A stretch of DNA of 64,000 nt from an uncultured bacterium (GCA_963844965.1 CAWJQC010000004.1:32001-96000); one strand, 5' to 3'; positions 512 to 53,149 are shown, counted from the stretch's first letter. Made by a program: numbers and translations. The notes: generated by a model from the sequence alone, not told the origin.

Positions 512-542
<31 letters not shown>

Positions 543-669
543 ACGTGACGTCCTTGAGAGAGGGCCCGCCTTTCGGCAAGCTTTCGTCACGAATTTCAAG
601 CCCTGGTAAGGTTCCTCGCTTACTGTCGAATTAAACCTCATGCTCCACCGCTTGTGCGAGTCCCCGTCT

Positions 670-701
<32 letters not shown>

Positions 702-1161
702 TCCCAGGCGGCCGACTTAACGCGTTAGCTCCGCCACTCCGAGGGTCGATACTCGAAACAGCAAGTCGGCATCGTTTAGGGCGTGGACTACAAGGGTATC
801 TAATCCTTTTTGCTCCCCACGCTTTCGCGTCTCAGAGTCAGGAAGGTCCCAGTGCCATGCCTTCGCCTTTGGTGTTCCGCACGATATCAACGGATTTCAC
901 CCCTACACCGTGCGTTCCAGGCACCTCTAACCTCCTCTAGTTTCGCCGTATCTCCTGCACTTCCACCGTTAGGCGGTGGGATTTAACAGAAGACGCACGA
1001 AACCTCCTACACGCTCTTTACGCCCAATAAATCCGGATAACGCTCGAGGTCTACGTATTACCGCGGGTGCTGGCACGTAGTTACCAACCTCTTTCCGTAT
1101 GGTACGGTCACCCAGCACTTTTGGAACGAACTTTTCTAATTTGCTCAAATTTTTGGAGGTA

Positions 1162-1190
1162 TTGACAACAGCAATCACTTCTGCTATAAT
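1162..1190 (+). promoter_or_regulatory. Perfect consensus sigma70 promoter (TTGACA-17 nt-TATAAT) inside the 16S insertion, antisense to the rRNA.
   Basis: TTGACA at 1162-1167, a 17-nt spacer, TATAAT at 1185-1190. Confidence 0.6.
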
Positions 1191-1269
1191 GCCCATAGCA
1201 CATTGGGAGACCAACGTGCCGCACGTCGGGCCTCAGCCCTTGTGCAATTCCCAAAAGGAGAATTGATTT

Positions 1270-1461
1270 ATGCGTGCCAAATTCCCGTCACAAGTCACGG
1301 ATCGAATACTGGAAGCAGCCAAGAAAGAGTACTCCTTCCAGATCAATCATGCGGAATTAGGGCGGCGGCTGTTTACGCGCAAGCACTGTGGCACGAGAAT
1401 GGTTCAGGTAAAAGTCTTTCTGCAAGGAAGACAACAACCTGCCATACTCGGAAAACAATAA
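1270..1461 (+). CDS. 63-aa basic hypothetical protein encoded antisense inside the 16S rRNA insertion.
   Basis: AAGGAG RBS at 1255-1260, 9 nt upstream of ATG 1270. The ORF is MRAKFPSQVTDRILEAAKKEYSFQINHAELGRRLF.... It is preceded by the consensus promoter and followed by an intrinsic terminator. Confidence 0.45.
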   Translation: MRAKFPSQVTDRILEAAKKEYSFQINHAELGRRLFTRKHCGTRMVQVKVFLQGRQQPAILGKQ

Positions 1462-1542
1462 CCACAGATGCACGGACGCCGCAGTATGCCCCGTTTGTTT
1501 GCTGGCATATGTCATGACTAACGACTAGCTGCCACCTTTCTA

Positions 1543-1577
1543 CTGCCACCAGAAGCTTTCCGGTGGCAGTTTTTTAA
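1543..1577 (+). terminator. Intrinsic terminator after the 63-aa ORF.
   Basis: ctgccacc-agaagctttcc-ggtggcag hairpin followed by TTTTTT. Confidence 0.6.
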
Positions 1578-2337
1578 ATCCAAAAATTTGAGCAAATTAG
1601 TTTTCCCGCCAAAAGTGCTGGGTTCTTCCCATACTACCGCAGTTTACAACCCGAAGGCCTTCTTCCTGCACGCGGCGTCGCTCGATCAGGCTTTCGCCCA
1701 TTGTCGAATATTCTCGGCTACTGCCACCCGTAGGTGTACGAACCGTTTCTCAGTTTCGTCGTTGGGGGTCAGGCTCTCACCTCCCCTACCGGTCATAGCC
1801 TTGGTAGGCCGTTACCCTGCCAACTAGCTGATCGGACCTAGGCCGCTCTTGGAGCGTCTTGCGACTTTGGATGCGAATGGCTTTCGCCCCCGCATCATCA
1901 TCAGGAATTACCCCGCCTTTCGGCGAGCTGTGCCCGTCTCCAAGGTACGTTACCAAGGTGTTACTAACTCGTTCGCCGCTCACTATTTTCCTTGCGGAAA
2001 ATAGTTCGCTCAACTTGCATGCCTTATCCACGCCGCCAGCGTTCATCCTGGACCAGGATCAAATCCTCAGTAAAAATCGCGCATTTATTCAATACGCGAG
2101 ATTGTGCGCCATGCATGACGCCCAAACTCGCGCATCTCACTCGTGCGTGAGTTCATACCGCGATTGATTTATTGATCTCGGTTTATTTCAATTCCAAACC
2201 GAAAAATGAATCTTATTGGGACAACTAAAAAACTCTTTTTTATTTACTTTTCTCATATTAATTTTTCAATCTGCAGTCGGCGCAGTCCTTTACCCCGCAC
2301 ATTACCTTCGGTAATAACGGGGCGAGCAACAAAACAT

Positions 2338-6500: not shown

Positions 6501-6998
6501 CTACCGCGCCTTGCTGATTAATCCGTCCACATCTTTCAATTCTTCCCAAATGCCGTCAATCAAATCATATTTCTTAGCCTCTTCAAGCGTTACCCAGACG
6601 TGATCGGTCAGGTCCTTGCACAATTTTACTTCACCGCTTTTGTAAAACGTCCAGTATGACAGCGTGACCACGGGGAAACCATCAGGGCGGATGAAAACCA
6701 AATCCGTCAAATATTGCGGCTTCTCTATTTCCAGACCGACCTCCTCGCGCACCTCCTTGCGCACGAGCCAATCCATAATGCCGTAGTATTGAAAATATTC
6801 CGTCTCGTGCGGCAGTTTCTCGTATTCATGAACCACAAGTTTCCCGCCCGGCACGGTCCATTTATTCGGGAACGCTTTCTCGTGCGGCGCGCGCTTGGCG
6901 ATCAAAAACCGCGCAACGTCCTGAGCCGAAGGCGAAGGATCTCTTTTGACGATAATCGCTGTCGCGGTTACGAAATGCAGGCGAGGGTCAGTGTCCAT
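6501..6998 (-). CDS. Nudix hydrolase.
   Basis: Nudix box G-x5-E-x7-REVREEVGLE. Confidence 0.7.
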   Translation of the reverse strand: MDTDPRLHFVTATAIIVKRDPSPSAQDVARFLIAKRAPHEKAFPNKWTVPGGKLVVHEYEKLPHETEYFQYYGIMDWLVRKEVREEVGLEIEKPQYLTDLVFIRPDGFPVVTLSYWTFYKSGEVKLCKDLTDHVWVTLEEAKKYDLIDGIWEELKDVDGLISKAR

Positions 6999-7115
6999 TT
7001 CAATTTAATTCCCGACATTTACGAAAGCTCAAAGGGGTAAATTATTCTTCTTCCCTGTGTTCTAAAACTTTCTCGCGCGCCGCTGCAAGTCTACTCGCCT
7101 CTTCGGTTTGGCGAA

Positions 7116-7514
7116 TCACATCTTTCCGACGATCTCTTCGATTTTCACTAAACCCTTCCCAACCATTTCCAGTCTATTCGCCAAAGCACCGACATTCTTC
7201 ATCTCTGCCTCGATTCTCTCAGTTTCTTCTCCTTTTTCCGCATTTTTATATTTCCCCTTAAGCCCCTCTTCCAACTTACGAAGTCCTTCACAAATCGTAT
7301 GCATGTCATGCTCAGTAAAATATTTACCAAGATCTTTTGACATCGAATCTGTTTTTATCATCTCTCTCTTAGCCTCTGCTTTCTGGTCGCCCGTTGCAAT
7401 AAGTCGTCCTTCTCTGTCAACCTCGGCTCCTCCTTTTACCATCTCGGCCTCTTGTATTCTGGCGCTTGCTATTTCCTCCGGCGTCATTCTTGGGAATTCT
7501 TCTGATTTTGGCAT
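7116..7514 (-). CDS. Hypothetical charged/coiled-coil protein.
   Basis: 132-aa ORF, K/E-rich. Confidence 0.4.
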   Translation of the reverse strand: MPKSEEFPRMTPEEIASARIQEAEMVKGGAEVDREGRLIATGDQKAEAKREMIKTDSMSKDLGKYFTEHDMHTICEGLRKLEEGLKGKYKNAEKGEETERIEAEMKNVGALANRLEMVGKGLVKIEEIVGKM

Positions 7515-14377: not shown

Positions 14378-14641
14378 ATGAGCAACAAAAAAGGGCATCG
14401 GATTGCAAAGGAAGTGAAGGCGGACATCCTCCGCCGCGTGAAGGAAGAAGGCGTTTCGGTGGCCCAAGCCGCGAAGGACCACGGCTTGCACGAGTCCACC
14501 ATCTATAACTGGCTCGGAGCCGGAGCGGCAGGCGCTCCCTCGTGGAGCGAGTTCTCCCGCCTGCAGAAGCAGAACCGCGAGCTCTTTGAGGTGGTGGGCG
14601 AGCTCACCGTGAAGCTCTCTCAGGCCCAAAAAAAGAGTTGA
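14378..14641 (+). CDS. IS3-family transposase OrfA (HTH).
   Basis: RIAKEVKADILRRVKEEGVSVAQAAKDHGLHESTIYNW plus a leucine-zipper tail. Confidence 0.8.
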   Translation: MSNKKGHRIAKEVKADILRRVKEEGVSVAQAAKDHGLHESTIYNWLGAGAAGAPSWSEFSRLQKQNRELFEVVGELTVKLSQAQKKS

Positions 14642-15420
14642 CGGAGAAACGGGACAAGTCGGCCCTGGCCAGGGCCATGGGCGTCTCACGGGCATCGCTC
14701 TACTACGTTCCGAAACAGTACGCGAAGGATTGGGCATTCAAGATCCTGATCGAGGAAGAGCTGCGGCGCCATTCCTCGTACGGCTCGCGGCGCCTGGCGC
14801 AAGCCCTCCACGCGAACCGCAAACGGACCAGGCGTGTGATGAAGCTCTTTGGCATCAAGCCATACCGGAGGCGGGGCAAGAAATATCGTAAATCAAAGGC
14901 ATCGCGGGCCTTTCCGAACCTCTTACTTGCCATCATGCCCTCGTACGCGAACCACGTCTGGGCAACCGATTTCACGGAGTTCCTGTATCGCGGCAAGAAA
15001 GTGTACGTGTCCACGATACTCGATCTTTTCACGAGACGATTGATGGGCGTCCATGTGGCGTTGCGGAAAGGATCGCCCCTCACGATACAGACCCTGGCCA
15101 ACGCGCTTTTCCACCATCCGCATCCGGTCATCTTCCATTCGGACAACGGCAGCGAGTACAAGGCACGAGCGTTCACCGATACACTGGGGGACTGTGGCAT
15201 CACGATCTCGCGGTCGCGGCCCGGTGCCCCATGGGAAAACGGCTACCAGGAATCGTTCTATGACAAGTTCAAGATTGACCTCGGTGATCCCAACCGGTTC
15301 GGGACCTTCGGCGAGCTCGTGGCGGAGATCTACAGCACCTTGTGGCAGTACAACCACACGCGGATCCACTCCGCCCTCAAGATGCCGCCGTCCGTGTTTG
15401 CCGAGAAGATTGCGGCTTAA
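14638..15420 (+). CDS. IS3-family transposase OrfB (DDE integrase core).
   Basis: WATDFTEF...HSDNGSEY...NGYQESF. rve domain. Confidence 0.8.
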   Translation: MTEKRDKSALARAMGVSRASLYYVPKQYAKDWAFKILIEEELRRHSSYGSRRLAQALHANRKRTRRVMKLFGIKPYRRRGKKYRKSKASRAFPNLLLAIMPSYANHVWATDFTEFLYRGKKVYVSTILDLFTRRLMGVHVALRKGSPLTIQTLANALFHHPHPVIFHSDNGSEYKARAFTDTLGDCGITISRSRPGAPWENGYQESFYDKFKIDLGDPNRFGTFGELVAEIYSTLWQYNHTRIHSALKMPPSVFAEKIAA

Positions 15421-16050: not shown

Positions 16051-17106
16051 CTAGTTCCCCATCTTCGGCCCGCTTACGTCGCCATTGTTATTATATCCAG
16101 ACTTTTCCCACGTGCCTTTGTAATTAATATCATCGGACAACTCAATTTTGGTTATCCATTTTATCCATTTGTATCCCCATTTTTGTTCCGCAACAAGCTG
16201 AAACGGGAAGCCTTTTTCTGCCGGAATGACAACGTTATTCATTTTATAGGCCAAGAGAATATTATTATTTTCAATATAATCCAGGGGCAGTGAGGTGGTA
16301 TAACCATCGCTCGCATAAAATATGACAACTTTTGCTTGTGCTTTAATACCGGCCGATTCCAAAAGGTCTTTGACCAAGACCCCTTCCCATAAAATTTTTG
16401 CAGTCCAGCCCTCGACACAATCAAGCTCCACAACCTTAGAATATTTCTGAAAATTTAGAACTTGATCGTAGGTATAACTTTTTGGAGTCTGGACCAAGCC
16501 AGAGATTTCCAATGAGTAATTATCAATGTCTATATATTGAGTTCCTTTAATCGCGTTATCCTGAATATCGGCAATTGATGATAATTTTTCTCCCTGGTAC
16601 TCCTTAACCTGACTATCTGTTAATTGTTTTGTTGCGTAATCAGACGATAATTTAATTCTGATAAAAGAAATGCTTGCGATTCCGGCCAGCACCAAAAAAA
16701 TTATTAAAAACCAAATTTTGGTTCTCAAACCTAAAAATTTATTTTCAGGAGTTGCGTTGAGTGTTTTTTCGGAAACTTTAATTCGGCCCAAGACGATATT
16801 CATCAATGCCAAAACTACTATAATAATACCCGACCAATCATGTGCAAAATTTATCCAAAATAACGGCAAAGGCGCATAGCCAATTACATGATACAATTCC
16901 AAAAACTTAAAAACGCCCGTAATAACCAGTATTGGAACAAAAAATATCAAAACCAGTCGAACAATTTTTCTTAATGCAATCACGCTTTTATTATATCGTT
17001 TCCATCCGAAGTCAACAAAAGCGAAGAGCGTCAAAAAACCACCCCGTGTGCGGAGCGGCGGAAATTTACTCCAACGGGTGGACGGTGTTAGAATATAAAT
17101 CGCCAA
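16051..17106 (-). CDS. Molybdopterin-dependent oxidoreductase (sulfite-oxidase/MsrP-like catalytic domain) fused to an N-terminal multi-TM domain.
   Basis: ELDCVEGWTAKILWEGV...FYASDGYTTSLPL...LLAYKMNNVVIPAEKGFPFQLVAEQKWGYKWIKW. Confidence 0.65.
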   Translation of the reverse strand: MAIYILTPSTRWSKFPPLRTRGGFLTLFAFVDFGWKRYNKSVIALRKIVRLVLIFFVPILVITGVFKFLELYHVIGYAPLPLFWINFAHDWSGIIIVVLALMNIVLGRIKVSEKTLNATPENKFLGLRTKIWFLIIFLVLAGIASISFIRIKLSSDYATKQLTDSQVKEYQGEKLSSIADIQDNAIKGTQYIDIDNYSLEISGLVQTPKSYTYDQVLNFQKYSKVVELDCVEGWTAKILWEGVLVKDLLESAGIKAQAKVVIFYASDGYTTSLPLDYIENNNILLAYKMNNVVIPAEKGFPFQLVAEQKWGYKWIKWITKIELSDDINYKGTWEKSGYNNNGDVSGPKMGN

Positions 17107-39882: not shown

Positions 39883-40695
39883 TTAATTATAAGTTTTGCT
39901 CGACCATTTTTTCTTATTGCGGGTCTTGTGCCCGCCGGTAACCTTACCCCACAACGTTTTTGGTTTTCTCGTGCCGCGCGGCTGTCTGCCCTCGCCGCCG
40001 CCGTAGGGATGATCAACCGGATTCATGGCTGTGCCGCGGACGGTCGGCCTCACGCCAAGCCAGCGCGAGCGGCCGGCTTTTCCTATTGTAACCAAATTAT
40101 GCTCGGGATTGGAAAGTTGTCCGATGGAAGCGAAGGAGTTCCAGGAAACCCTTCGTATCTCGCCGGAGGACAACTTCAGGTCCGTATAGCCATCGGCGTT
40201 CGCGAGGACCTCCACGTAAGAACCGGCGGAACGGGCCAGCTTCCCGCCCACGCCCGGCTTCAATTCTATATTATGTACTTGGTAGCCAACTGGAATATTC
40301 TTCAATCTTAACCTATTTCCGATTTTAAGAGGCGCGGTATCGGACGTCACGATGGTATCCCCGACCGCGAGCCCCTGAGCCGCGAGAACGTAGCGGCGCT
40401 CGCCATTGGCGTATAAAACCCTGGCGATGAATGTGGTTCTGTAAGGATCATATTCCAAAGTTTCAACCTTGGCCGGCATATCCGGGAATTCGCTCTGCAC
40501 GAAATCTACCATCCTGTACAGCTTTTTGTGACCGCCGCCCTGATGGCGCACCGTGATTCTTCCCTGCGAGTTCCTGCCCGCGTGGTCCTGAAGGCGCCTA
40601 AGCAGCGGCTTATACGGTTCTGTTTTTGTAAGCGCACCATAATCGGGTACCGTCATCTGCCTGCGTCCCGGAGTTGTTGGCTTGTAAGCTTTCAT
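39883..40695 (-). CDS. rplB: 50S ribosomal protein L2.
   Basis: ...GGGHKKLYR...HPYGGGEGR. Confidence 0.9.
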   Translation of the reverse strand: MKAYKPTTPGRRQMTVPDYGALTKTEPYKPLLRRLQDHAGRNSQGRITVRHQGGGHKKLYRMVDFVQSEFPDMPAKVETLEYDPYRTTFIARVLYANGERRYVLAAQGLAVGDTIVTSDTAPLKIGNRLRLKNIPVGYQVHNIELKPGVGGKLARSAGSYVEVLANADGYTDLKLSSGEIRRVSWNSFASIGQLSNPEHNLVTIGKAGRSRWLGVRPTVRGTAMNPVDHPYGGGEGRQPRGTRKPKTLWGKVTGGHKTRNKKKWSSKTYN

Positions 40696-40702
40696 CGGAA
40701 AA

Positions 40703-40978
40703 TTATTGTATGTCTATTTTTTGTCCGGCCTTAAGCGTCACAATCGCTTTTTTGTATCCAGATTGTTTGCCGCGCAGGGCGCCGACGCGCTTATGCTTGG
40801 CCGGGCGATTGACGATATTGACTGCGACCGCATCGGCTTTGTAAATTTCTTTCACCGCTTTTTTGATCTCCGGCTTGGTGGCGTCATTCCTCACGAGAAA
40901 AACGTATTTGCCGAACTTGGACAAGTCGGTCGCTCTCTCTGTCACCCACGGTTTTTTTATCAAAAATACGCTGCTCAT
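40703..40978 (-). CDS. rplW: 50S ribosomal protein L23.
   Basis: 91-aa protein in the conserved position. Confidence 0.8.
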   Translation of the reverse strand: MSSVFLIKKPWVTERATDLSKFGKYVFLVRNDATKPEIKKAVKEIYKADAVAVNIVNRPAKHKRVGALRGKQSGYKKAIVTLKAGQKIDIQ

Positions 40979-41619
40979 GATTTGTAACGTTTACCCATAA
41001 TTTCAACGGCTTTTCTGTCCATGAAAATATTCTTATAGTTCAAAATGTCGTAGAGATTCAGCGACTCCGGAGGAACAGTTTTTGTCTTGACCAAATTCCG
41101 CGAGGCGCGCGCCAAATTTTTGTTTTCTTTGTTCGCGACAAGAAGTAGATCAAATTTTTTATCCTTCTTTTTCAAGTTCAAAACCGGCGCGAGCGCCGCG
41201 GCAAGAACCTTGGTTTTCGGCCGCTCCACGTTCAAATCTTCAAAAATCCTCACGTCATTGTCTTTGAGTTTGCGCGAGAGCGCGCTCACGAGAGCCAGAC
41301 GCTTCATTTTCTTGTTTATCTTCTGCGAATAATCGCGCAACTTGGAAGGTCCGTGCGCCTTGCCGCCGCCAACCCACAACGGCGAGCGGATAGAGCCATG
41401 CCTCGCGCGCCCCGTTCCCTTCTGCCGCCACGGCTTTCTGCCGCCGCCTCGGACTTCGGCGCGGGTCTTTGCGTGCGCCCACGGGCGTCTGGCGTTCGCA
41501 AGCTGGGCAACCAAAACCTGTTGCACAAGCTCCGGATTCCACTTCACGCCAAAAATCTTGTCGGGTAGTTCAATCTCGCCGACCACCTCGTTTTTTAAAT
41601 TATAAACCGCGGCTTTCAT
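40975..41619 (-). CDS. rplD: 50S ribosomal protein L4.
   Basis: 214 aa, with an RGGGRKPWRQKGTGRAR loop. Confidence 0.85.
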   Translation of the reverse strand: MKAAVYNLKNEVVGEIELPDKIFGVKWNPELVQQVLVAQLANARRPWAHAKTRAEVRGGGRKPWRQKGTGRARHGSIRSPLWVGGGKAHGPSKLRDYSQKINKKMKRLALVSALSRKLKDNDVRIFEDLNVERPKTKVLAAALAPVLNLKKKDKKFDLLLVANKENKNLARASRNLVKTKTVPPESLNLYDILNYKNIFMDRKAVEIMGKRYKS

Positions 41620-41620
41620 T

Positions 41621-42172
41621 CTATTTTCTATTTTCTATTTTCTGTACTTCCAAAATCCCTCCCCTCGCTCCGGGAACCGCTCCCTTTATAAAAAGCAATC
41701 CGTTCTCTTTATCAACGCCGGCGACCTTCAAATTTTTTACCGTCACGCGCTCGTCGCCCATGTGGCCGGCCATGCGGTGGCCCGGCGTAACCCGCTGGGG
41801 CGCGGTGCTGCCGATGGAACCGCCGGCGCGGAAACGGTTTTTCTGTCCGTGTGTTTTCGGTCCGCCGGCGAAACCATGGCGCTTGACGACACCAGCAAAG
41901 CCACGTCCCTTCATCGTGCCCGACACGCGCACCACATCACCTTCCTTGAAAGCATCAACCTCTATTGCGTCACCAACTTTAAATTTCTCGCTTTCGGTTC
42001 TGAATTCCCGCTTTTGCTTTCCGAGAGCGAGCTGAACGGCTTCATATCCGTCCCGTTCGTTAGTGCGAACAAAAGTTACCTTATTCGGCTGCGCGCGAAG
42101 CACCGTCACGGGCACGACGGTTTTGTCCTTCCAAATCTGGGTCATCTTCAATTTTTTCGCCAGGATAAACAT
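41621..42172 (-). CDS. rplC: 50S ribosomal protein L3.
   Basis: KKLKMTQIW...FKEGDVVRVSGTMKGRGFAG. Confidence 0.85.
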   Translation of the reverse strand: MFILAKKLKMTQIWKDKTVVPVTVLRAQPNKVTFVRTNERDGYEAVQLALGKQKREFRTESEKFKVGDAIEVDAFKEGDVVRVSGTMKGRGFAGVVKRHGFAGGPKTHGQKNRFRAGGSIGSTAPQRVTPGHRMAGHMGDERVTVKNLKVAGVDKENGLLFIKGAVPGARGGILEVQKIENRK

Positions 42173-42407
42173 AACTTAATAAAAATCCGCCCAAGCACAC
42201 CCGGGCGGTCCGGCTGTCCTTGTGAAAACGTTCTTAATTATTGTCCAGAACGTCCATTAAAGAGACAAGCTAATACTACGCCGGAATGCCTGGAACGTCA
42301 ATAGCACCCCCTCCACAAGCAAAATCGGCCTGATTTTGCCGCCTTGCCTTCTAAAATGTCGGTAAAATAAAAAGCCGGGCCGTTAGAACTTCAGCCCGGC
42401 AACTTGC

Positions 42408-43511
42408 TCACCGAAGAATGAAACGTCCCGGTTTGCTTGAGTAATCAGAGAAGAAATTCGCATACGGGAAACGCAGAACACCATAGCCGTGCGTCACGCT
42501 TTTTGAGACGAACGCGGGCCTTTCTCGTTTCCATCGCTCATACTCTTCTTCCTTGAACAGCACGACGCGTAGCGGATTGCGCGATTCATCAATAACGGCA
42601 GGAAGAGCAAACTCCCAAAACGCCATGTCGTCCTGTTCGTCGCGCGTGAAGAGCGAACGAACGTCGGCGATATCGCCTTCGGCCCAGAACGCGAATCCGC
42701 CGCAGGAAGTCAAATATATTCTCTCCAACTCTTTCGGCCGAATACCCTCCAACTTCAACAAATCAAATCTGTTACAAACAGCCAAAGGCTTTAACCGAGA
42801 ATAGTAAAAAAGTTGTCGCGCTTCCTTTCTTACACATTTGGCAAATATGTCCTCGATGTAGGCGGCGAGGAACGGGAGCTCGTGACTAATGTCGGCATCA
42901 AAACAGTTGACCGAATGTTCAACCGGCAGGGCGTATTTCCAAATGCTCGGAATCGTTTCTTGGAGAATGGCAAGTGTGTCCGGCACCGACCCGCCGATAG
43001 TACTGAGAGAATTGAGGCCGGGAACCGTTTCGCCGTGTATGAAGTGCCGGTGGCAAACCGACACATACCGGAGATATATACCCATGCCGTCGCTGTGCAT
43101 GAATTCCAGAAGACGCAGGGTTTTTTCCGGCGCGAACATAACGAGCACGCATTTCTTCGTTTTCTCAATCGGCACCGTTTCGCCGGGCAGTACGTGCCCT
43201 TTATCCCCGAGCGCGCGGAGAAGTTCTTCGGCGGCTTCATCGCAACCGTCACGCCGGAGCTGGGCATAAAAATCGGCGAGAACGCGCGCATCGCTGAAAA
43301 GTCCGTTAAGTTCGTTCAAAAACGCGGTTGGGGTGTCGGCTTTATCGGCGATATTTGCCAACGTTTCCGTCATAAATCCGAGTTTGCCGCGCCTTCGCCC
43401 AAACACTTTATGGCCGGCGAGTTTCTGAAATAACCGGTCAAATTGCTGTCCACGAAGAACCGTCTTTCCTTCAGGCACCTGTTTCATGGGAACCTCCTTG
43501 TTCCGAAACAC
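42408..43511 (-). CDS. Hypothetical 367-aa protein in a locally GC-rich segment.
   Basis: Long ORF with no recognisable motif. Many overlapping antisense ORFs indicate a compositional shift. Confidence 0.45.
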   Translation of the reverse strand: MFRNKEVPMKQVPEGKTVLRGQQFDRLFQKLAGHKVFGRRRGKLGFMTETLANIADKADTPTAFLNELNGLFSDARVLADFYAQLRRDGCDEAAEELLRALGDKGHVLPGETVPIEKTKKCVLVMFAPEKTLRLLEFMHSDGMGIYLRYVSVCHRHFIHGETVPGLNSLSTIGGSVPDTLAILQETIPSIWKYALPVEHSVNCFDADISHELPFLAAYIEDIFAKCVRKEARQLFYYSRLKPLAVCNRFDLLKLEGIRPKELERIYLTSCGGFAFWAEGDIADVRSLFTRDEQDDMAFWEFALPAVIDESRNPLRVVLFKEEEYERWKRERPAFVSKSVTHGYGVLRFPYANFFSDYSSKPGRFILR

Positions 43512-43690
43512 ATCTGAAGCAACACTTCCTGGGAAATGCCTATTCGTCTGCCTTTCAGCAGACCGTCTCCTGGGAAACGTGGATTAGCGCATTTTCAAAG
43601 AACATGCACCGAACAAATCATAAGCAATGCGGACTTCTAAGTCAAGCGCATCGTAGATGCGGCCGACACCGAAAATCTTCCGTTCCCAAT

Positions 43691-44695
43691 TTACTGTGCC
43701 ACCATAAGCGTCCTCCTTATTGAGTCAAACTGATTAAGCAATGCCGTGCGGTCAAATTCATGGACAACGCCAGGCGGATAGTTATAAATATCCGTGGAGT
43801 GTATGAGATAGCGCACCGCGAGGCAGGGATTTGTGCCGGGAACGGCCCAGACTTGTTCTTCGTAAAAATTGCCCGCCGCCCCTTCGGTCGTCGTAGCAAC
43901 GGAATACTCCGCGCCGCCGTCGGTCACATTCTCTGCGACCAGATTTTGCCGGTCAAGAAAAGGAAGCGCGCTGCAATCCTTTATGTTCGGAGTTTCTTCA
44001 ACCGACACGCCCGTGTCGTAGTGTGAAAGATTGGTACCGGTCGCCATCGCGGCGGGAATAACAAATTTGACGCCGCTGATATCCTTGCCCGGGCCGAGTT
44101 CCTGATACTTATACGAAGCGTCAACGGAGTAGCCCACGGGATAACGTATGGAAAAACCCGCCGTTCCGCTTGCGTAAGTTTGCGGCAAACCGCCCGAGTC
44201 TGGCGCAAGCACAATACAGCCAACGTAATTTTTCTCTTCGTTATTCTCAAAAACGAGCGCGCCGTTGCCCTTGCCCCAGAAAACGAACGACTCGTCACTG
44301 TTGGCGTAACGTATTCCGTCCGCCGATATTGTTTGCGGCAAAGTGAATCTGCGCCCGTCGCTTAAAACCAAGGCAACGCTCCCACCGGGAACCGGCGGCT
44401 CGCCGGGCTTTACGGGCGGCGGAGTTCCCTTGTAAAAACTTGCGTCAATCGTCTTTCCGCCATTGCACAGATAGGTAACTTCATTGATAGGCGCGGGCGC
44501 CGCGGACTTTTCCGGCGCGCCGCGGCGGGCGTACCAAAACCACACGCCAAAAAACACCAAGATGACCGCGAGCACCGCAAACAATATTTTAATATTCCTA
44601 AATTCCATGATTTTAGTTTTTAGAAACGCCCGATCCGATAAGCACAGGTGGCACTCTGTGGAGATAGCGAGAGGCACCAGTTGCAACTTCGCCAA
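43691..44695 (-). CDS. Membrane-anchored protein with an MliC/PliC-like (lysozyme-inhibitor) domain plus an unknown C-terminal domain.
   Basis: The probable start is MEFRNIKILFAVLAVILVFF (44608). Motif region CNGGKTIDASFYKG...VALVLSDGRRFTLPQTISADGIRYANSDESFVFWGKGNGALV...C. Confidence 0.5.
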   Translation of the reverse strand: MAKLQLVPLAISTECHLCLSDRAFLKTKIMEFRNIKILFAVLAVILVFFGVWFWYARRGAPEKSAAPAPINEVTYLCNGGKTIDASFYKGTPPPVKPGEPPVPGGSVALVLSDGRRFTLPQTISADGIRYANSDESFVFWGKGNGALVFENNEEKNYVGCIVLAPDSGGLPQTYASGTAGFSIRYPVGYSVDASYKYQELGPGKDISGVKFVIPAAMATGTNLSHYDTGVSVEETPNIKDCSALPFLDRQNLVAENVTDGGAEYSVATTTEGAAGNFYEEQVWAVPGTNPCLAVRYLIHSTDIYNYPPGVVHEFDRTALLNQFDSIRRTLMVAQ

Positions 44696-44706
44696 ACCAA
44701 CCGCCG

Positions 44707-45018
44707 TCAGCTGTAAGCCAAAATGATAAACACAATCGCGACGATTACGACGAGGAACGTAATGGTTGCCGCAACAAGATTTATCGCTTCCCTTTTTTTG
44801 CCGTTAAAGTACCAAAGAATCGGCCGGCCGAAGATAACAATGCCCATTACAGCCGCGGAAATCACAAAAACAAGAAGAAACGCCGAGACGACCAGCACCC
44901 CGCCCCCGGGACCGAAAACGTGGTTCGCGTTTGAAATCAAAAGAGCGACGAGCCCCACGTAGGCCGCGGCGGCAAGCGCGTTAAGCAAGCCGTAGCCGAT
45001 TATTCGTTTTGTTTTCAT
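44707..45018 (-). CDS. Small 3-TM membrane protein, hypothetical.
   Basis: 103-aa hydrophobic ORF. Confidence 0.4.
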   Translation of the reverse strand: MKTKRIIGYGLLNALAAAAYVGLVALLISNANHVFGPGGGVLVVSAFLLVFVISAAVMGIVIFGRPILWYFNGKKREAINLVAATITFLVVIVAIVFIILAYS

Positions 45019-45030
45019 TGTATAGAAATA

Positions 45031-46422
45031 TTACTGCTGGCATGCCTGGCCCGTCAGCCACGGTCCACTCGTGGCGTTGGGATCGTATGGCACGAGCGGC
45101 ACTACGCACGACCAGGAAAGGCCAGTGGATTTGAGCACGATTTTGCTATCGCTTCGGTCCGTTATTACGCTACGCAGTCCGATGGTAATTGTCGGGTCAA
45201 CGCCGGAAATGCCCATGCGGTGCACCCCCAATATTTCAATCGGGAGCATTCTCTGGGTGGTTGGTCCTAATGGGAAGGAAAACGGAACGTTAATGTTCTC
45301 TCCGCTGTGCGTGAAGGGAATAGATGGGTCAGCCGCCAGATTTTCCAGGTGATAATCGGTTGACGGATCATCAGCTACGCGCAAAACCAGCGGCGAATCG
45401 GCGACATTCAAAGCCGTGTAAGAAATATCAACGTTTAGTCCGGTAATCGTAATCTGGTTGGAATCTATATTGTTGAAAACAAGACCACCATTGTCCGTAC
45501 TTTCCTGAAGCACGGTGCTCATGGCCGACGGCGAAGTGACGATCAGTTGGCCGGGGTCGGTCGTAAAGGAAAAATTTTTGGACTGAACCCGCTGGTCGTT
45601 TCCGGAAGTCTGAGCCAAACCGATGGCACAAGCGTATGAAGTTCTCACATCGAACATCGGATTTTGGTCGGTATCGTCGGAAGACGGGATATTCGGCGGC
45701 GGATTGCAGGAGAACGAAACGAAAAAACGCGGCACCGAACCGCTGCCGCCGATGGAAGTTTCGTCCAAACCCCATATTACACTGCTTTTTGTGCCTGCGA
45801 ACGTGGTAAATTTTGCTTCGTATGGGCCGTCAAACCGTTCGTTCAAAGAAAGCGTGGTGGCGTCCAAAAACGTCCGCGCCGTAATTACCGCCGGGACGGA
45901 AGCGGCGGCTGTTGTCGGGGTCGTAGCGGATTTTGCCTGCGCTCCGGCCTTTTTACTTGTAGTTTTCCCACCGGACTGGGTGGTCGCGGCGGCCGTCGTG
46001 GCGGTCGTTGTGGAAAACGGCACATCCACGCTTGGCAATAGTCCCGCCACAATCTCCGTCTGTGCATCCAAACTCGCGACGCTTGAGGTGGCAACGCTTG
46101 AAGTAGCCGTGGAAGTTGAGAACGCAATAACACTTTGCATCATGGCAATCTCTTTCGGGACGCCTACTGCCATGCCCAGGCGTGCCTGCATGCCCATAAC
46201 TTCAATCGTCTGTTTATAGGAAACAATTTCCGTCAAAGTTTTCGCCGCGAAAACTCCTCCGAAGAGGATTGCCGCGAGCCCGACAAGAAAAGGAACTCTC
46301 GTGCTGAACAACTTCAAGATTTTTCCGGAGATATTTCCGCCGCCCAAAAAAATGGCCTTGAAGCCGCCGGGTCTGGCGGGCTTTTCACGGCGCACAATAT
46401 CTTGTACGCGCCTGTTATTCAT
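45031..46422 (-). CDS. Large N-terminally anchored secreted/cell-surface protein with a Ser/Thr-rich linker.
   Basis: 463 aa. TM near the N-terminus, a TTTATTAAATTQSGG linker, and a Cys-containing C-terminus. Confidence 0.45.
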   Translation of the reverse strand: MNNRRVQDIVRREKPARPGGFKAIFLGGGNISGKILKLFSTRVPFLVGLAAILFGGVFAAKTLTEIVSYKQTIEVMGMQARLGMAVGVPKEIAMMQSVIAFSTSTATSSVATSSVASLDAQTEIVAGLLPSVDVPFSTTTATTAAATTQSGGKTTSKKAGAQAKSATTPTTAAASVPAVITARTFLDATTLSLNERFDGPYEAKFTTFAGTKSSVIWGLDETSIGGSGSVPRFFVSFSCNPPPNIPSSDDTDQNPMFDVRTSYACAIGLAQTSGNDQRVQSKNFSFTTDPGQLIVTSPSAMSTVLQESTDNGGLVFNNIDSNQITITGLNVDISYTALNVADSPLVLRVADDPSTDYHLENLAADPSIPFTHSGENINVPFSFPLGPTTQRMLPIEILGVHRMGISGVDPTITIGLRSVITDRSDSKIVLKSTGLSWSCVVPLVPYDPNATSGPWLTGQACQQ

Positions 46423-46717
46423 TTGACGTATTGTTATATATTACCTCAGGACGCGTGGGGATTCAAACGTAGGCAAAATCGCAGTTTTGTTGCGGCAGGG
46501 CAAATCACCCGGAGCGCTGAAGGATTAAAAAACAAAGCCGCAACCACGACTGTTCACTTTTTATGAACAATCATTTTATCGCTTGTTAAAAATTGAAACT
46601 GCCGACCGTGGATACAAAAATCTTTCAAAAGCCCGAAAAGAAAACACCCCGAAAACGAATTGGCTTTCGGGGCGACTTGTTAGAAAAAAACAGGAGTCAG
46701 GATTCTATTCTCTGGTT

Positions 46718-47162
46718 TCAATTGAGGCCCGTTGCGGCAAGAAGTGTGCGGCGAATCACCGAATCGTGTCCCATCTCATTGTATGTGGCCGCCTCTATAC
46801 GCCTCTCCAAAACAGCAGGAAGCCCAAGTATTTCTTTCTTGACCTCCCGTTCGGCAGAGCTCGCCACACCTTCCGTAATCATCGCGTATACCGCAGTCAA
46901 CGGATAGTAGTCATTTTCCGCGGTGATGATGACACCGAGCGGCGTCAGCTTCCATCGGTGGGGTCTTTGCGCAGATACTCAAGAATACGCTGTAGTCGTA
47001 GATATCGCGCCCCAACAGTGCGCCGAAGAACAGCAACAAAACACCCTGAATTCCTACGACCACGTGATGACCTTGTATTTGATCTTTTGAAAAAAGAGCG
47101 AAAGCGGTGCATATTCCACCAAACACCAGCAGCACGACAAGCGATGGCTTAGCGCCCTTCAT
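46718..47162 (-). CDS. Hypothetical membrane protein, probably one gene split by a frameshift.
   Basis: ORFs 46911-47162 and 46718-46900 are collinear. Confidence 0.3.
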
Positions 47163-47434
47163 ATACCCCCCCTTCCTCTTTTTTATCTTTGGCCTATCCA
47201 GCTGGCCTCAACCTAACACAGCGAAAGTTATTAGTCAAATGCGGCGGCTTTTTATAACTTGCGCGCTGATCACGGCAAAAATCTGCCGCCGGCCGGGAAT
47301 GCGGGGGTTTAAACGAGGTCCAGCTGGTCCTCGGCCACAGGGTTTTAGAAAACCAATTCAAAACTGCCCTTTCCTGCGCTTCGCCGAAGGCTTCGGCAAG
47401 GCGAGCGGGCGGTGGTGAAAAAAATTACCTAGTT

Positions 47435-47782
47435 CTATTTGCCGTCGGCGCTGCTGGCCGGAAACTCGGAAGACGCGTCTCCGTCGTTCATCCATTGCCA
47501 AATTTCGGCTCGGCGCTTTTCGGCGCCGGGAAACACGTCATCGGGTATGGCAATACGCCGCAATTCTTCTTCGGTCAAGCTGCTGAGGTTAACCGACGAG
47601 GGGTCTTTGCCTAAAAGAGATTTGAGCGTTTTAAGGCTCGCTTTTATCCGTTTCGGGGCGAGAGCGTCCTTATTCCACAACTCTGAATCTTTTCTAATTG
47701 CGTCCAAATTTTCGTGCGCCAGGGCGATCCTGTCGTTCCTGGAGAGTTCGTTCCCGCCAATCTTATCTGCAGGTTCTGGCAT
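47435..47782 (-). CDS. Hypothetical protein.
   Basis: 115-aa ORF. Confidence 0.35.
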   Translation of the reverse strand: MPEPADKIGGNELSRNDRIALAHENLDAIRKDSELWNKDALAPKRIKASLKTLKSLLGKDPSSVNLSSLTEEELRRIAIPDDVFPGAEKRRAEIWQWMNDGDASSEFPASSADGK

Positions 47783-47841
47783 AAATTTATATTACAACAA
47801 TTTAATTTCTAAGTCCAAGCCCTGAATTAACAGAGAAATTC

Positions 47842-47870
47842 AAAACCGCCTTTTCGGGCGGCTTTGTTTC
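47842..47870. terminator. Bidirectional terminator hairpin downstream of rpsJ.
   Basis: AAAAccgccttttcgggcggcTTTGTTT. Confidence 0.5.
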
Positions 47871-47885
47871 TGCGTAATTCCGCGT

Positions 47886-48236
47886 AGTTCCGCGCTTAGA
47901 CCATTTTGATTTCCACATCTACGCCAGCCGGTAAATTCAGATTGCTCAGCGATTCCACGATTTTCTGACTGGGATTCAGTATTTCCACGAGGCGCTTGTG
48001 GACGCGGAGCTCAAACTGCTCGCGCGAGTCCTTGTGGACGAATGTTGAACGATTTACGGTGTAGCGCTTAATCTCGGTCGGCAGCGGAATCGGCCCTACG
48101 ATGCGCGCGTCCTGCCTCTCGGCGGCTTCAATAATTTGCCGCGCCGAATTATCAATCAGCTTGTGATCTGTATGACTTGATTCTCAGCCTGATTTTTTGC
48201 GGAAGGTCCGCTACTTTTTTGGCCATTATTTTTTCC
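47886..48236 (-). CDS. rpsJ: 30S ribosomal protein S10, with a 1-nt frameshift near 48165. It is absent from the ORF track.
   Basis: [19 protein letters not shown] then shifted to [41 protein letters not shown]...[13 protein letters not shown]. Confidence 0.8.
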
Positions 48237-48537: not shown

Positions 48538-49740
48538 TTATTTCAGTATCTTAGTCACCGCTCCTGCGCCGACCGTCTTGCCGCCTTCGCGGATGGCAAA
48601 ACGCTGTTTTTCTTCAAGCGCGACCGGGAAATGAGTTTCACGGTGAGTTTAACGGTGTCGCCCGGCATGACCATTTCCATGCCTGCCGGCAAGGGTCACT
48701 TCGCCCGTAACATCGGTCGTCCTGATATAGAACTGCGGCTTGTAGCCGTTGAAGAACGGCGAGTGGCGGCCGCCTTCCTCTTTTGAAAGCACGTAAACCT
48801 CGCGCTCGAATTCCGTGTGCGGCGTGACGCTGCCCGGCTTCGCGACAACCTGCCCGCGCTCCACGTCTTCTTTCTTCAGGCCGCGGAGCAGAACGCCGAC
48901 GTTGTCGCCCGCCATGCCTTCGTCCAAGAGTCTTATTGAACATTTCAATGCCCGTGACGACGGTCTTCTGCCGTCGGCCTGCAGGCCGACGATCTCCACT
49001 TCTTCGTTCACTTTCACCTTGCCGCGCTCCACGCGGCCGGTCACGACCGTGCCGCGTCCTTCAATCGAGAAGATGTCTTCGATCGGCATAAGGAACGGCT
49101 TGTCGAAGTCGCGGACCGGATCGGGAATGAATGTCATCCACCGCTTTGATAAGGTCCAAGATCGGTTTCGCGTCCGGGTCGTCGGCGATTTCGCGGCCAA
49201 CGCTTTCAAAGCCGAACCGCGGATGATCGGAGTCGTGTCGCCCGGGAATTCGTATTTCTTCAAAAGCTCGCGGACTTCGGACTCAACGAGATCAATGAGT
49301 TCCGGATCGTCCACCTGATCGCACTTATTAAGAAACACGACGATGGTCGGCACGCCGACCTGGCGGGCAAGCAAAATGTGCTCGCGCGTCTGCGGCATCG
49401 GGCCGTCGGTCGCGGCGACGACCAAAATCGCGCCGTCCATCTGCGCGGCGCCCGTGATCATGTTCTTGATATAGTCGGCGTGTCCCGGCGCGTCAATGTG
49501 CGCGTAGTGGCGCTTCTCGGATTCGTACTCCGAATGGTGCAGGGCGATCGTGATGCCGCGCGCCTTTTCCTCCGGAGCGTTGTCAATTTGGTCCACTCTC
49601 TCTTCTTTCTTCGTCAGACCCTTCAAATGCAAAACGTGCATAATCGCGGCGGTCAGGGTCGTCTTGCCGTGGTCAACGTGGCCGATCGTGCCGATGTTCA
49701 TGTGCGGCTTGGCCCGGTAGAATTTTTCTTTTTCAGCCAT
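48538..49740 (-). CDS. tuf: Elongation factor Tu, with at least four 1-nt indels (near 49185, 49150, 48690 and 48600).
   Basis: [14 protein letters not shown]...DAPGHADY...NKCD. The C-terminus ...[51 protein letters not shown] can only be reconstructed by switching frames. Confidence 0.85.
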
Positions 49741-50100: not shown

Positions 50101-50904
50101 TCATTTCCCTAGAGCGGAAAACGCCTCGTTGCCGGGATACTTTCTATGAAGGTAATCGTGGATATTAGCTTTGTCATCTGCGGTATATTGGCAGGCGTTT
50201 TTCTTGTCCGTGATTATCTTCAAAATCACGAACCAAACGTCGTCGGCGTACATACCGCCGTCCAGAGCCACCGATTCGAATATTAATTCCCGGCCGCGAT
50301 AGTCGTTGTTCGGAATGCCGAACAGTGTTGTCACCACGGGATGCGACGACGCCCTATAGTTCGTAAGGCCGAGAAGGAATTTCGCGCCACGGTACTTTGA
50401 GGCGGAAGCGACGGCAACGGCGGACTGCAAGGTGTTTTTTGCCGCCCACCACGAGCCGCAGCCATACAACAGAACTGCCTTGGTATATAGAAGATTCGCC
50501 TCTACATACTGATAAAAATCAATCTGCTTGCCGTTTCCTATTTTCTTATCAGCCTTGTTGATGCCCACATCAAGCAGCTTGAAAAAATCCGCGCGCGGGC
50601 CGTCCTCCAATTTAGGCGCGTCCTTTTTTTGTTCGTGCCGAAGCCGGAAAAGCCAGCTCAAAGATAGCCGCAGTTCACCGACGGGATCGTCCGGCTCCAT
50701 TTCCGCGTATTTTCTGAACTTGGCGTCGGCGCAGTTATAATCGCTGTTGTAAAAACAATTCAGGCCCGCCTCAAGCACAGCACGGCTCTCGGGCCTCATC
50801 TCACGGTCCGAGATAGAATCCGCAGAAAAAACCGGGGCAGCCGAACCCGAGAAGAGACACACCGACATAAAAAAGATGAGCATCCTCGTTCTCTTCGCGC
50901 CCAT
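50101..50904 (-). CDS. Secreted hypothetical protein (signal peptide) inserted between fusA and tuf.
   Basis: MGAKRTRMLIFFMSVCLFSGSAAPVFSA.... Confidence 0.45.
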   Translation of the reverse strand: MGAKRTRMLIFFMSVCLFSGSAAPVFSADSISDREMRPESRAVLEAGLNCFYNSDYNCADAKFRKYAEMEPDDPVGELRLSLSWLFRLRHEQKKDAPKLEDGPRADFFKLLDVGINKADKKIGNGKQIDFYQYVEANLLYTKAVLLYGCGSWWAAKNTLQSAVAVASASKYRGAKFLLGLTNYRASSHPVVTTLFGIPNNDYRGRELIFESVALDGGMYADDVWFVILKIITDKKNACQYTADDKANIHDYLHRKYPGNEAFSALGK

Positions 50905-51044: not shown

Positions 51045-53149
51045 TTACCGTTTTTTGCCTTCGATAATCAACTGCGCAATGTTCTGCGGCACTGGCTCAT
51101 AATGGTCAAATTCCATCGTGAACGCTCCCCTGCCTTGCGTCATGGAACGCAACTCGGTCGCGTAGCCGAACATTTCCGCGAGCGGAACTTTGGCGTCAAT
51201 CACTTTCACGTTGGGCCGGTCGGAAATTTCCTCAATCCTGCCGCGCTTGGAGTTCAAGTTGCCGCTCACCTCGCCCAAAAATTCTATCGGGATGATAACC
51301 TGAAGCTTCATTATCGGCTCCAATATGACCGGCTTCGCGCGCTTCGCCGCTTCCTGCAGGGCGATGGAGCCAGCAATTTTGAAAGCCGCCTCCGACGAGT
51401 CAACTTCATGGAAAGAGCCGTCATAGAGCGAAACTTCAAGGTCGGTCATCGGGTAGTGGGCAACGACCCCCTTACTCAATGCTTCCACCACACCTTTTTC
51501 CACCGCCGGGATGAATTCGTTCGGAATGATCCCTCCCTGATATCGTCTATGAAAACAAATCCCTTGCCGCGCTCCAAGGACTTCACGCGCAGCCAGACAT
51601 GTCCGTATTGTCCGCGGCCGCCGGATTGCCTGATATATTTGCCTTCCGCCTCCGCTTCGCCCATAATCGTTTCTTTATAGGCAACCTGCGGCCGCCCCAC
51701 CGAACCCTCAACACCGAACTCCCGCTTCATCCTGTCAACAATAATTTCCAGGTGCAACTCGCCCATGCCAGAAATAATCGTCTCGCCAGTTTCCAGGTCG
51801 CCCGCCACGCGGAAAGTCGGGTCTTCTTCCGCCAAGCGGTGCAGGGCAATGCTCATTTTTTCCTGGTCGGCTTTCGTCTTCGGCTCAATGCGAATGCCGA
51901 TCACCGGCTCGGGGAATATGATCTTCTCAAGCACTATCGGCGCGTCGGGACTGCAAAGCGTGTCGCCGGTCGTCGTATTCTTCAAACCGACGATCGCCGC
52001 GATATCTCCGGCATGCACTTCCTCCATTTCTTCGCGGTGGTTGGCGTGCATCCGCACCACGCGGCCGACACGTTCCTGCTGGTCCTTCTTGGAATTCAAA
52101 ACGTACGTGCCGCGCTTCAAAACGCCGGAATAATTCCGGAAATAGGTTAAAGTGCCGACGTACGGGTCTGTCGCAACCTTGAAAGCCAGCGCCGAGAACG
52201 GCTCTTCGTCCTTGGGGTGCCGCACGATATCGGCGCCGCTCTTCGGGTCAATGCCCTTAACCGGAGGAAGGTCCGTCGGCGCGGGCAAATATTCCACAAC
52301 CGAGTCAAGCATAAATTGCACGCCTTTGTTTTTCAGGGCCGAACCGCAAAGCACCGGCACAATTTTGTTGGCAATAACGGCTTTGCGCAAAACGCGGCGC
52401 AAATCTTCAATGTCAAGCTCAGTACCATCCAAATACTTGGTCATCAAGGCATCGTCATTGTCCACAATGCGTTCCACAAGTTCATGCCGCGCCTTCTTCA
52501 CGTGCACTTTCATATTTTCCGGCATCGGAATTTCTGTAATCTTTTCGCCATGTTCACCCTCCGAGCCGTACGCCTTTTCGGTTAAGAGGTCTATCATTCC
52601 CACGAATTCACCCTCAAGGCCGATGTTCAACTGCAAAGGCAGTGCGTTCGGCGTGAGCCGTTCTTTGATTGACTGCAAACTTTTTTCAAAGCTCGCACCC
52701 AAGCGGTCAAGTTTGTTAATAAAGCAAATCCGCGGCACGTGGTACTCATCGGCATAGCGCCAGTTCGTTTCCGACTGCGGCTCAACACCTGCGACGCCAT
52801 CAAAGACGACAACCGCGCCGTCCAAAACGCGGAGCGAACGCTTCACCTCCACCGTAAAGTCAATGTGCCCCGGCGTGTCAATCAAATTTATCATATGCTC
52901 AAATTTTTTGTCGCCCTTGCGGTAAGTCGGAATCCAGAACGCCGTCGTTGCGGCGGAAGTAATCGTAATTCCCCTCTCACGTTCCTGCTCCATCCAATCC
53001 ATCACCGTGTCGCCCGTGTGCACCTCGCCGATTTTGTGACTGACGCCCGTATAAAAAAGCACCCGTTCGCTCACGGTGGTTTTGCCGGCATCTATATGGG
53101 CGATGATGCCGATGTTACGGACCTTCTCGACAGGATACATTCTAGGCAT
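51045..53149 (-). CDS. fusA: Elongation factor G, with a 1-nt frameshift near 51520 splitting it into two ORFs.
   Basis: [25 protein letters not shown].... The C-terminal ORF 51045-51503 continues ...[27 protein letters not shown]. Confidence 0.85.

Follow-up and report, generated by a model that had tools for sequence, protein, structure and literature searches.

A probable fast-turnover gene slot between rpsJ and rplC in the ribosomal-protein cluster of an uncultured Paceibacteria-like bacterium

In a 64,000-nt stretch of DNA from an uncultured bacterium (GCA_963844965.1 CAWJQC010000004.1:32001-96000; hereafter the window, with positions counted from its first letter), the ribosomal-protein genes rpsJ (S10) and rplC (L3) are parted by 5723 bp, from the stop codon of the former to the start of the latter, and six genes lie inside, all co-directional with the ribosomal genes. 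Probably this block is what currently occupies a permissive site of fast gene turnover at an operon boundary, a slot filled with genes typical of the lineage. A sequence-only reading of the same DNA had seen in it a horizontally acquired accessory cassette, possibly a surface-interaction or defence module. The gene set which that reading had listed was borne out, the minus-strand open reading frames (ORFs) all being real and their positions confirmed (Table 1); its account of origin and function fared less well, as described below.

The rpsJ-rplC junction among relatives

We fetched 80 species-representative loci around L3 and placed S10, L3 and their neighbours in them by tblastn; gap statistics are given for the loci whose L3 is at least 55% identical, called Paceibacteria-like here. 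Among these the median gap between the S10 and L3 genes is 852 bp and the longest 4.6 kb; of 27 loci, 20 have a gap longer than 500 bp and 12 one longer than 1 kb. The junctions L3/L4, L4/L23, L23/L2, L2/S19, S19/L22 and L22/S3 are all 313 bp or shorter (36-42 loci). In several loci whose upstream flank extends over the full 10 kb, rpsJ is missing from that stretch before rplC. The S10-L3 gap is 5.9 kb in a more distant Patescibacteria locus and 18-250 bp in the outgroups Chloroflexota and Actinomycetota. The fusA/tuf and tuf/rpsJ junctions also carry insertions in some relatives.

Gap genes differ between relatives and are mutually unrelated (Table 1). The window block as a whole was not found at the rpsJ-rplC site in any of the approximately 45 Paceibacteria-like loci examined, other genes being present there, which agrees with the accessory and variable character proposed for it and leaves no sign of homologues universally present at this position. 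No homologue of a cassette protein was found in the rpsJ-rplC gaps of the 80 fetched rplC loci; in one of them (L021) an MliC-family homologue lies upstream of rplC at a distance of 8 kb, and the S10-L3 gap itself is only 85 bp. Homologues of the cassette genes occur singly, each without the other cassette genes (28 metagenome loci and 7 looked-up contexts), and the cassette synteny was not found in the metagenome loci or in the other contexts looked up. Conserved cassette synteny was thus rejected, since only the pair of genes for a 463-aa and a 103-aa protein is shared, and only with one locus, L089.

L089 is the closest relative found, its L3 and L2 being 81% and 88% identical to those of the window. 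Directly upstream of its rplC it has a homologue of the 463-aa gene (60% identity) and then one of the 103-aa gene (71%), and it lacks the 2.5 kb bearing the 305-aa and 359-aa genes. Because L089 holds only part of the block, the block appears to be a mosaic assembled stepwise, not a single acquisition. The remaining homologues of the 463-aa protein sit elsewhere (L090, L091, L093 and the 28 metagenome loci). L089 also has a dCMP/cytidine deaminase gene (6816-7220) between rpsC and rplP in an otherwise compact operon, which is absent in the window.

Transcription signals around the block

In the window rpsJ is the final gene of an upstream unit, fusA-(267-aa gene)-tuf-rpsJ, and the downstream unit runs rplC-rplD-rplW-rplB and onward. 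A GC-rich terminator-like hairpin with a T-run lies about 30 nt past the rpsJ stop codon. The same is frequent among relatives: in 19 of 29 Paceibacteria-like loci the first 130 nt past rpsJ contain a hairpin of -10 kcal/mol or lower with a T-run, compared with 0-4 of 26-28 in control windows of the same loci. The contiguous rpsJ-rplC arrangement of E. coli is not what we find here, given the multi-kilobase gap, the hairpin after rpsJ, and the promoter-like site and leader before rplC. Transcription stop and start sites are accordingly predicted at this boundary from sequence signals. The hairpin behind rpsJ and the promoter-like site and leader ahead of rplC suggest that rpsJ closes one transcription unit and that rplC opens the next; if these units are separate, the intervening space could take up genes harmlessly.

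A comparable division is familiar from cyanobacteria, plastids and archaea, where rps10 goes with the str/EF-Tu genes and the first gene of the following ribosomal-protein operon is rplC. The window resembles these in having rpsJ directly after tuf with a hairpin behind it, and in the promoter-like site and leader that rplC has for itself; it differs in that the boundary in this clade is a highly variable multi-kilobase slot, with the two genes fully unlinked in some genomes.

We propose that the upstream unit would stop at the intrinsic-terminator-like hairpin just past rpsJ, and that the downstream unit would be driven by its own promoter-like site and by a leader ending in a terminator hairpin. 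Insertions between the two would then leave ribosomal-protein expression undisturbed, and for that reason the site may gather and exchange lineage-specific genes. The six genes of the block would form at least three or four units: the 115-aa gene; the frameshifted gene for a protein with two transmembrane (TM) segments, together with its terminator; an envelope trio made up of the 463-aa protein with its immunoglobulin (Ig)-like ectodomain, the 103-aa protein and the 305-aa protein; and the 359-aa gene with a promoter-like site of its own. Most likely these genes would have arrived by rearrangement within the lineage or by exchange with close relatives, rather than being transferred recently from some distant source.

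A structured leader RNA of the rplC operon

The leader consists of three helices. The first (5') pairs GTCyCTT with AAGGAy; the second varies in sequence while its complementarity is always kept; the third is a terminator-like hairpin (42187-42208) with a T-tract behind it, its end lying 15 nt ahead of the rplC ATG. Covariation was assessed in a model-based alignment of 11 sequences with 21 pairs in the three helices. In this alignment 93% of cells are paired, a share that drops to 38-55% once the 3' partners are displaced by 1-3 columns, and 11 of the 21 pairs show compensatory changes; the observed values were reached in none of 500 shuffles. Copies lie 53-261 nt upstream of rplC in 10 sources and were found in 10 of about 45 related loci, a subset of Paceibacteria (Table 1). 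A covariance model run over 1.5 Mb placed the leader upstream of rplC only, apart from one weak match (E = 0.08); since its matches are the ten sequences used to build it plus the weak one, the search gained no independent members.

A structure backed by covariation thus lies directly upstream of a ribosomal-protein operon, as in ribosomal-protein leaders. Rfam gave no match even at E <= 10, and assignment to a known RNA family was rejected on that ground. In E. coli the S10 leader acts as an L4-controlled attenuator (PMC3616713), and a candidate L4 leader is described upstream of rplC in Archaeoglobi (PMC7247131); in view of these two precedents the window leader is most likely an autoregulatory element of the rplC-rplD unit, and L4 or L3 are its candidate ligands, L4 being proposed by analogy with the same systems (PMC3616713, PMC7247131). 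The likeness lies in a structured 5' leader directly upstream of an operon encoding L3 and L4, and in an attenuator architecture in which helices precede a terminator hairpin with a U-tract. The window leader differs in preceding rplC, whereas that of E. coli is upstream of rpsJ, and in being limited to a subset of Paceibacteria and lacking any Rfam match; other relatives have another leader.

This second, different type of conserved leader occupies the last ~110 nt before rplC in L006, L010, L011, L014, L015, L018, L019 and L020. It has a terminator (AACTCCGG...CCGGAGTT) and then ACTGGATTyCC...GGrACGATCAAGA just before the ATG.

Composition and marks of foreign origin

Horizontal acquisition had been inferred from a marked compositional shift in the 42408-43511 gene, which has a GC content of 0.519 and a third-position GC content (GC3) of 0.579. 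The window as a whole has a GC content of 0.498, and neighbouring genes a GC3 of 0.55-0.65, which is also the typical range; the cassette genes together run from 0.51 to 0.54 in GC and from 0.58 to 0.61 in GC3. The sliding GC profile is flat over the block (0.46-0.56) and uniform across both junctions, and synonymous codon choice in the five cassette genes tested lies within ~0.6 standard deviations of the window mean (leave-one-out score). The GC and codon-usage analysis therefore finds uniform composition, and with GC, GC3 and codon usage all unshifted there is no compositional ground for inferring horizontal acquisition. The dense antisense ORFs reported over the 359-aa gene are indeed present (alternative-frame ORF coverage 1.81, rank 3 of 32 genes), although they are not distinctive, rplD (2.14) and rplC (1.79) being alike; as the adjoining ribosomal genes show the same coverage, we rejected this feature as a sign of foreign origin. 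Genes that are compositionally odd do occur elsewhere in the window: a transposase of the rve type (integrase core) at 14638-15420 (+), with GC3 0.78, and a molybdopterin-oxidoreductase-domain gene at 16051-17106 (-), with GC 0.378.

Domain scans of the cassette proteins found no integrase, transposase or recombinase domain, there is no tRNA within 7 kb, and a search for flanking repeats gave nothing long or convincing as the border of a mobile element. A 24-nt direct repeat of 83% identity does flank the 115-aa gene (47355-47378 and 47837-47860), one copy overlapping the rpsJ terminator; it may be the footprint of an insertion of that gene, or due to chance. The PADLOC-DB v2 defence models gave no match at E <= 0.1 for eight ORFs (seven of the cassette plus the 267-aa gene), no cassette protein matched PHROGs above noise, and IMG/VR held no relatives of the three families scanned; a defence or phage origin was rejected on these results. 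Homologue searches in the large protein databases covered three families, those of the 359-aa protein, the 305-aa MliC protein and the 463-aa protein, and all three are typical of Paceibacteria or CPR-like genomes (CPR, Candidate Phyla Radiation).

Proteins of the block

The MliC/PliC-like domain named in the sequence-only reading is genuine: the 305-aa protein matches PF09864 (MliC) at 38.6 bits (E = 1e-9), the gathering cut-off in Pfam being 22. In this protein an N-terminal TM anchor is followed by the MliC domain and then by ~170 aa of conserved C-terminal sequence, a domain without any family match. Its own family comprises 1163 homologues of ~300 aa in unrelated contexts, many of them Paceibacterota proteins named "MliC family protein". 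The family profile matches E. coli YdhA/MliC (2F09, 9.5e-6) and P. aeruginosa MliC (3F6Z, 1.5e-3), and the alignment to both structures spans two signature regions, ISA[SD]GxRY and FVFW[SG]KG.

Known MliC proteins carry the signatures SxSGAxY and YxxxTKG, and in P. aeruginosa S89 and K103 contact lysozyme, S89 inserting into the active site (PMC6033465). Region 1 of the window protein reads ISADGIRY, keeping the first Ser, the Gly and the Tyr and having Asp at the S89 equivalent; among the 120 closest homologues this region is SADG in 73, SASG in 32 and SGSG in 4. Region 2, FVFWGKG, keeps the Lys equivalent to K103 and the Gly, with Tyr replaced by Phe and Thr by Gly, and this Lys is kept in most of the 120 homologues.

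The protein shares with MliC/PliC (PF09864 / COG3895) a conserved Cys pair, membrane tethering and a predicted extracytoplasmic position. It differs from them in being anchored by an N-terminal TM helix where they have a lipobox or signal peptide, and in having no lipobox Cys after the hydrophobic segment; in its length, three times that of known members, which are single-domain proteins of ~100 aa, periplasmic or lipoproteins; and in its host, a monoderm-like CPR bacterium from an environmental sample, for which an animal c-type lysozyme would be an unlikely target. The protein would most likely bind a lysozyme-like muramidase at the cell surface and block it. The best-ranked full-text matches in the literature held nothing linking MliC to CPR bacteria.

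The 463-aa protein is a type-II membrane protein with a short cytoplasmic tail and a TM helix at ~45-62, followed by a disordered Thr/Ser/Ala-rich stalk (residues 63-176; ~45% Ser/Thr over 100-180) and an all-beta ectodomain (residues 180-440). The large Thr/Ser-rich protein of the sequence-only reading is thereby upheld as membrane-anchored, with one TM segment and a Ser/Thr-rich linker, and so is its small membrane protein, which has 103 aa and three hydrophobic segments. The families of the 463-aa and the 305-aa protein each have four invariant Cys, which we count in favour of an extracytoplasmic location. The closest known kind comprises stalked Ig-like surface proteins and fibrillar adhesins (CLIPPER domain, 9IFR; PorA N-terminal domain, 6KJK), from which the 463-aa protein differs in having no Pfam domain and no repeats and in belonging to a small family (~31 clusters). 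Most likely it is exposed at the surface, as a binding protein or one resembling adhesins.

The 359-aa protein might be taken for an ORFan, as a word-indexed search found only itself, but this was rejected when an exhaustive HMMER search returned at least 247 clusters at E <= 1e-3. The family has the conserved motifs PGETxPxE, RxxQxxIATWQF and SxGxxHGxG, with E103, R282 and S328 invariant, and no match to Pfam or to PDB sequences. The AlphaFold model is confident (pLDDT 84, pTM 0.81) and found no structural relative in the PDB. Family members are single genes in CPR-like housekeeping contexts, with some elsewhere in L086 and L096 and none in the 80 rplC loci. One member occurs in a 5.4-kb contig (JGI sample 3300071358, with P0007) that has four consecutive co-directional genes of 340-407 aa, all without a Pfam match, and this run may be an array of tandem paralogues.

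For the remaining proteins roles can be given at the level of location only: by their predicted segments the 115-aa protein, like the 359-aa protein, is cytoplasmic, and the 2-TM protein, like the 103-aa protein, is a membrane protein. The 115-aa protein had no match in Pfam, NCBIfam or PADLOC, and the 2-TM protein had none in Pfam above cut-off. The 83-aa and 60-aa ORFs of the latter are probably one frameshifted gene, three-frame translation showing an open continuation in another frame.

Host, flanking genes and assembly

The host of the window belongs to the ultra-small Paceibacteria of the CPR; the closest L3 proteins (at most 73% identity) all come from metagenome-assembled genomes of Paceibacterota, Liptonbacteria or "Parcubacteria". 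The 16S rRNA gene at 1-2074 (-) is 2074 nt long against a model of 1533 positions, owing to an insertion of ~540 nt, and 16S rRNA insertions are frequent among CPR bacteria.

Window positions 40377-44195, which cover the 305-aa gene, the 359-aa gene, rplC, rplD and rplW, recur at 99.97% identity in an independent Logan assembly of run ERR10755942; as the match runs from the 305-aa gene through the 359-aa gene into rplC, the right-hand junction is not an assembly join. Three essential genes in the window have frameshifts, namely rpsJ (47896-48226), tuf (48540-49740) and fusA (51045-53149), and the Logan contig carries a different indel, in rplW. The frameshifts are probably indel errors of long reads and the genes not pseudogenes; the rpsJ product is 70-92% identical to S10 of relatives. 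The gene for a 267-aa protein between fusA and tuf (50101-50904, -) encodes an N-terminal hydrophobic segment and has no Pfam match; L017 (6516-7355) and L015 (6036-6899) have weak homologues of it ahead of tuf.

Table 1. Features in and around the gene block, leader copies and gap contents in related loci (positions are those of the window unless a locus is named)
Feature	Position	Strand	Basis or remark
rplC	41621-42172	-	ORF; downstream flank of the block
Structured leader RNA of the rplC operon, three helices, ~95 nt	42175-42270	-	consensus scan, covariation
Promoter-like site TTGACG-17-TAGTAT	42273-42301	-	consensus scan; upstream of the rplC leader
359-aa soluble protein	42408-43511 (ORF, 367 aa); 42408-43487 from likely start M9	-	ORF
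Promoter-like site TTGACT-17-TATGAT	43617-43645	-	consensus match only; upstream of the 359-aa gene
305-aa MliC-family protein	43691-44695 (ORF); 43691-44608 from likely start 44608	-	ORF, PF09864
103-aa protein, three TM-like segments	44707-45018	-	ORF, hydropathy
463-aa membrane protein	45031-46422	-	ORF
Strong terminator-like hairpin, 12 pairs and T-tract	46645-46674	-	consensus scan; after the 2-TM gene
2-TM membrane protein, ~147 aa (83-aa and 60-aa ORFs)	46718-47162 (83-aa ORF 46911-47162)	-	three-frame translation, hydropathy
115-aa soluble protein	47435-47782	-	ORF; no hydrophobic segment
Terminator-like hairpin, GC-rich with T-run	47841-47866	-	consensus scan; after rpsJ
rpsJ (ribosomal protein S10)	47896-48226	-	one frameshift; two frames join into full S10
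Leader copy, L002	874-988
Leader copy, L003	3104-3208
Leader copy, L008	2240-2338
Leader copy, L009	2578-2675
Leader copy, L012	9735-9848
Leader copy, L016	9815-9924
Leader copy, L024	9892-9994
Leader copy, L030	4566-4667
Leader copy, L035	1207-1305
Gap content, L003			diacylglycerol kinase (DAGK) and PAP2 phosphatase
Gap content, L004	7218-8237		HisG and IS481-type transposase
Gap content, L010	5507-9709		PemK toxin, LiaF-like proteins, VanX-like peptidase, Ddl fragment
Gap content, L019			methyltransferase
Gap content, L026			APH-like kinase
Gap content, L035			TSCPD protein
Gap content, L049			queuosine salvage protein
Gap content, L052	5700-8353		diversity-generating retroelement (DGR): bAvd and reverse transcriptase
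Gap content, L059			EamA transporter

Alternative explanations

Horizontal acquisition was the view of the sequence-only reading. That the block came as one island, which a mobile element would have brought from another organism into the S10 operon, is unlikely. Such an island would account for the absence of the block from this position in all relatives examined, for the mobile elements that occupy the same site elsewhere (the IS481-type transposase of L004, the DGR of L052, the PemK toxin of L010) and for the 24-nt direct repeat (83%) around the 115-aa gene; it sits poorly with GC, GC3 and codon usage equal to those of the rest of the window, with a cassette lacking integrase, transposase, recombinase, tRNA and long flanking repeats, with three searched families that are typical of Paceibacteria or CPR, with an IMG/VR scan that gave no relatives, and with the stepwise assembly implied by a closest relative that has the 463-aa and 103-aa pair only. 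A functional surface or defence module, serving for example attachment or wall protection and co-expressed with the ribosomal proteins by read-through from the highly expressed fusA-tuf-rpsJ genes, also strikes us as improbable. Terminator-like hairpins after rpsJ and after the 2-TM gene and the leader terminator before rplC would interrupt it, no known defence system was matched, and gap contents in relatives are mostly unrelated to the envelope, even if some are of that kind (DAGK and PAP2 in L003; LiaF-like, VanX-like and Ddl proteins in L010). The module would explain why every gene is co-directional with the ribosomal genes, why the genes for the 463-aa, 103-aa and 305-aa proteins, all envelope proteins, are closely spaced (12 nt between the first two, 98 nt between the second and third), and why the 463-aa and 103-aa pair adjoins rplC in the nearest relative too; that homologues of the cassette genes occur singly in the metagenome loci and looked-up contexts speaks against it. 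Of the envelope and defence roles once suggested for the neighbours, the first holds in part, three or four of the six genes encoding envelope proteins and one of them having a genuine MliC domain; the defence module found no match in PADLOC, PHROGs or IMG/VR, and a single module is not what we see, as terminator- and promoter-like sites split the block and its genes are found singly, in other contexts, in other genomes.

That a chimeric join in the long-read metagenome assembly put unrelated genes between rpsJ and rplC is very improbable. The frameshifts in three essential genes would be in its favour, but the Logan assembly spans one end of the block, in L089 homologues of the 463-aa and 103-aa genes independently adjoin rplC on its upstream side, composition is uniform over both junctions, and large S10-L3 gaps are usual among relatives. 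A far-reaching version of the slot is a long shot: here rpsJ-rplC would be a lineage-wide exchange site in active use between a conserved terminator and an undescribed leader of the L3/L4 operon, swapping niche-specific envelope, host-interaction and mobile-element genes, with the envelope trio as an episymbiotic surface module and the 359-aa protein as a new fold and enzyme family.

Several points weigh against the preferred explanation, that of a permissive operon boundary. Promoters and terminators were called by consensus matching, and over the 8.7-kb region such calls are no more numerous than shuffled sequence would lead one to expect; read-through co-transcription would likewise fit the common direction of the block and the ribosomal genes; and L089, the closest relative, does not have this leader RNA. 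Composition tests are blind to transfer from a compositionally equal close relative. The Logan confirmation covers 40377-44195, leaving the left junction, from rpsJ to the 115-aa gene, outside the independent assembly, and the frameshifts in rpsJ, tuf and fusA mean that base-level quality is imperfect. Lastly, lysozyme inhibition by the 305-aa protein is uncertain, given Asp at the equivalent of S89, which P. aeruginosa MliC requires for that activity, in the window and in 73 of the 120 closest homologues.

Implications

The cassette itself is ordinary; modest leads come from the hotspot, from the rplC leader and from the family of the 359-aa protein. The leader is absent from Rfam and may represent a new element of ribosomal-protein autoregulation. 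Two protein leads are an uncharacterised family of ~350-aa proteins, confidently modelled but without a relative among solved structures, and a widespread Paceibacteria surface protein whose MliC domain usually has Asp in place of the key Ser. Ribosomal-protein gene order is often taken as fixed, and in uncultivated CPR bacteria it is relied on for binning, for phylogeny and for detecting contamination. A slot of several kilobases with rapidly changing content at one junction of the ribosomal cluster counsels caution against calling such insertions mis-assemblies, and an odd gene position alone is no proof of foreign origin.

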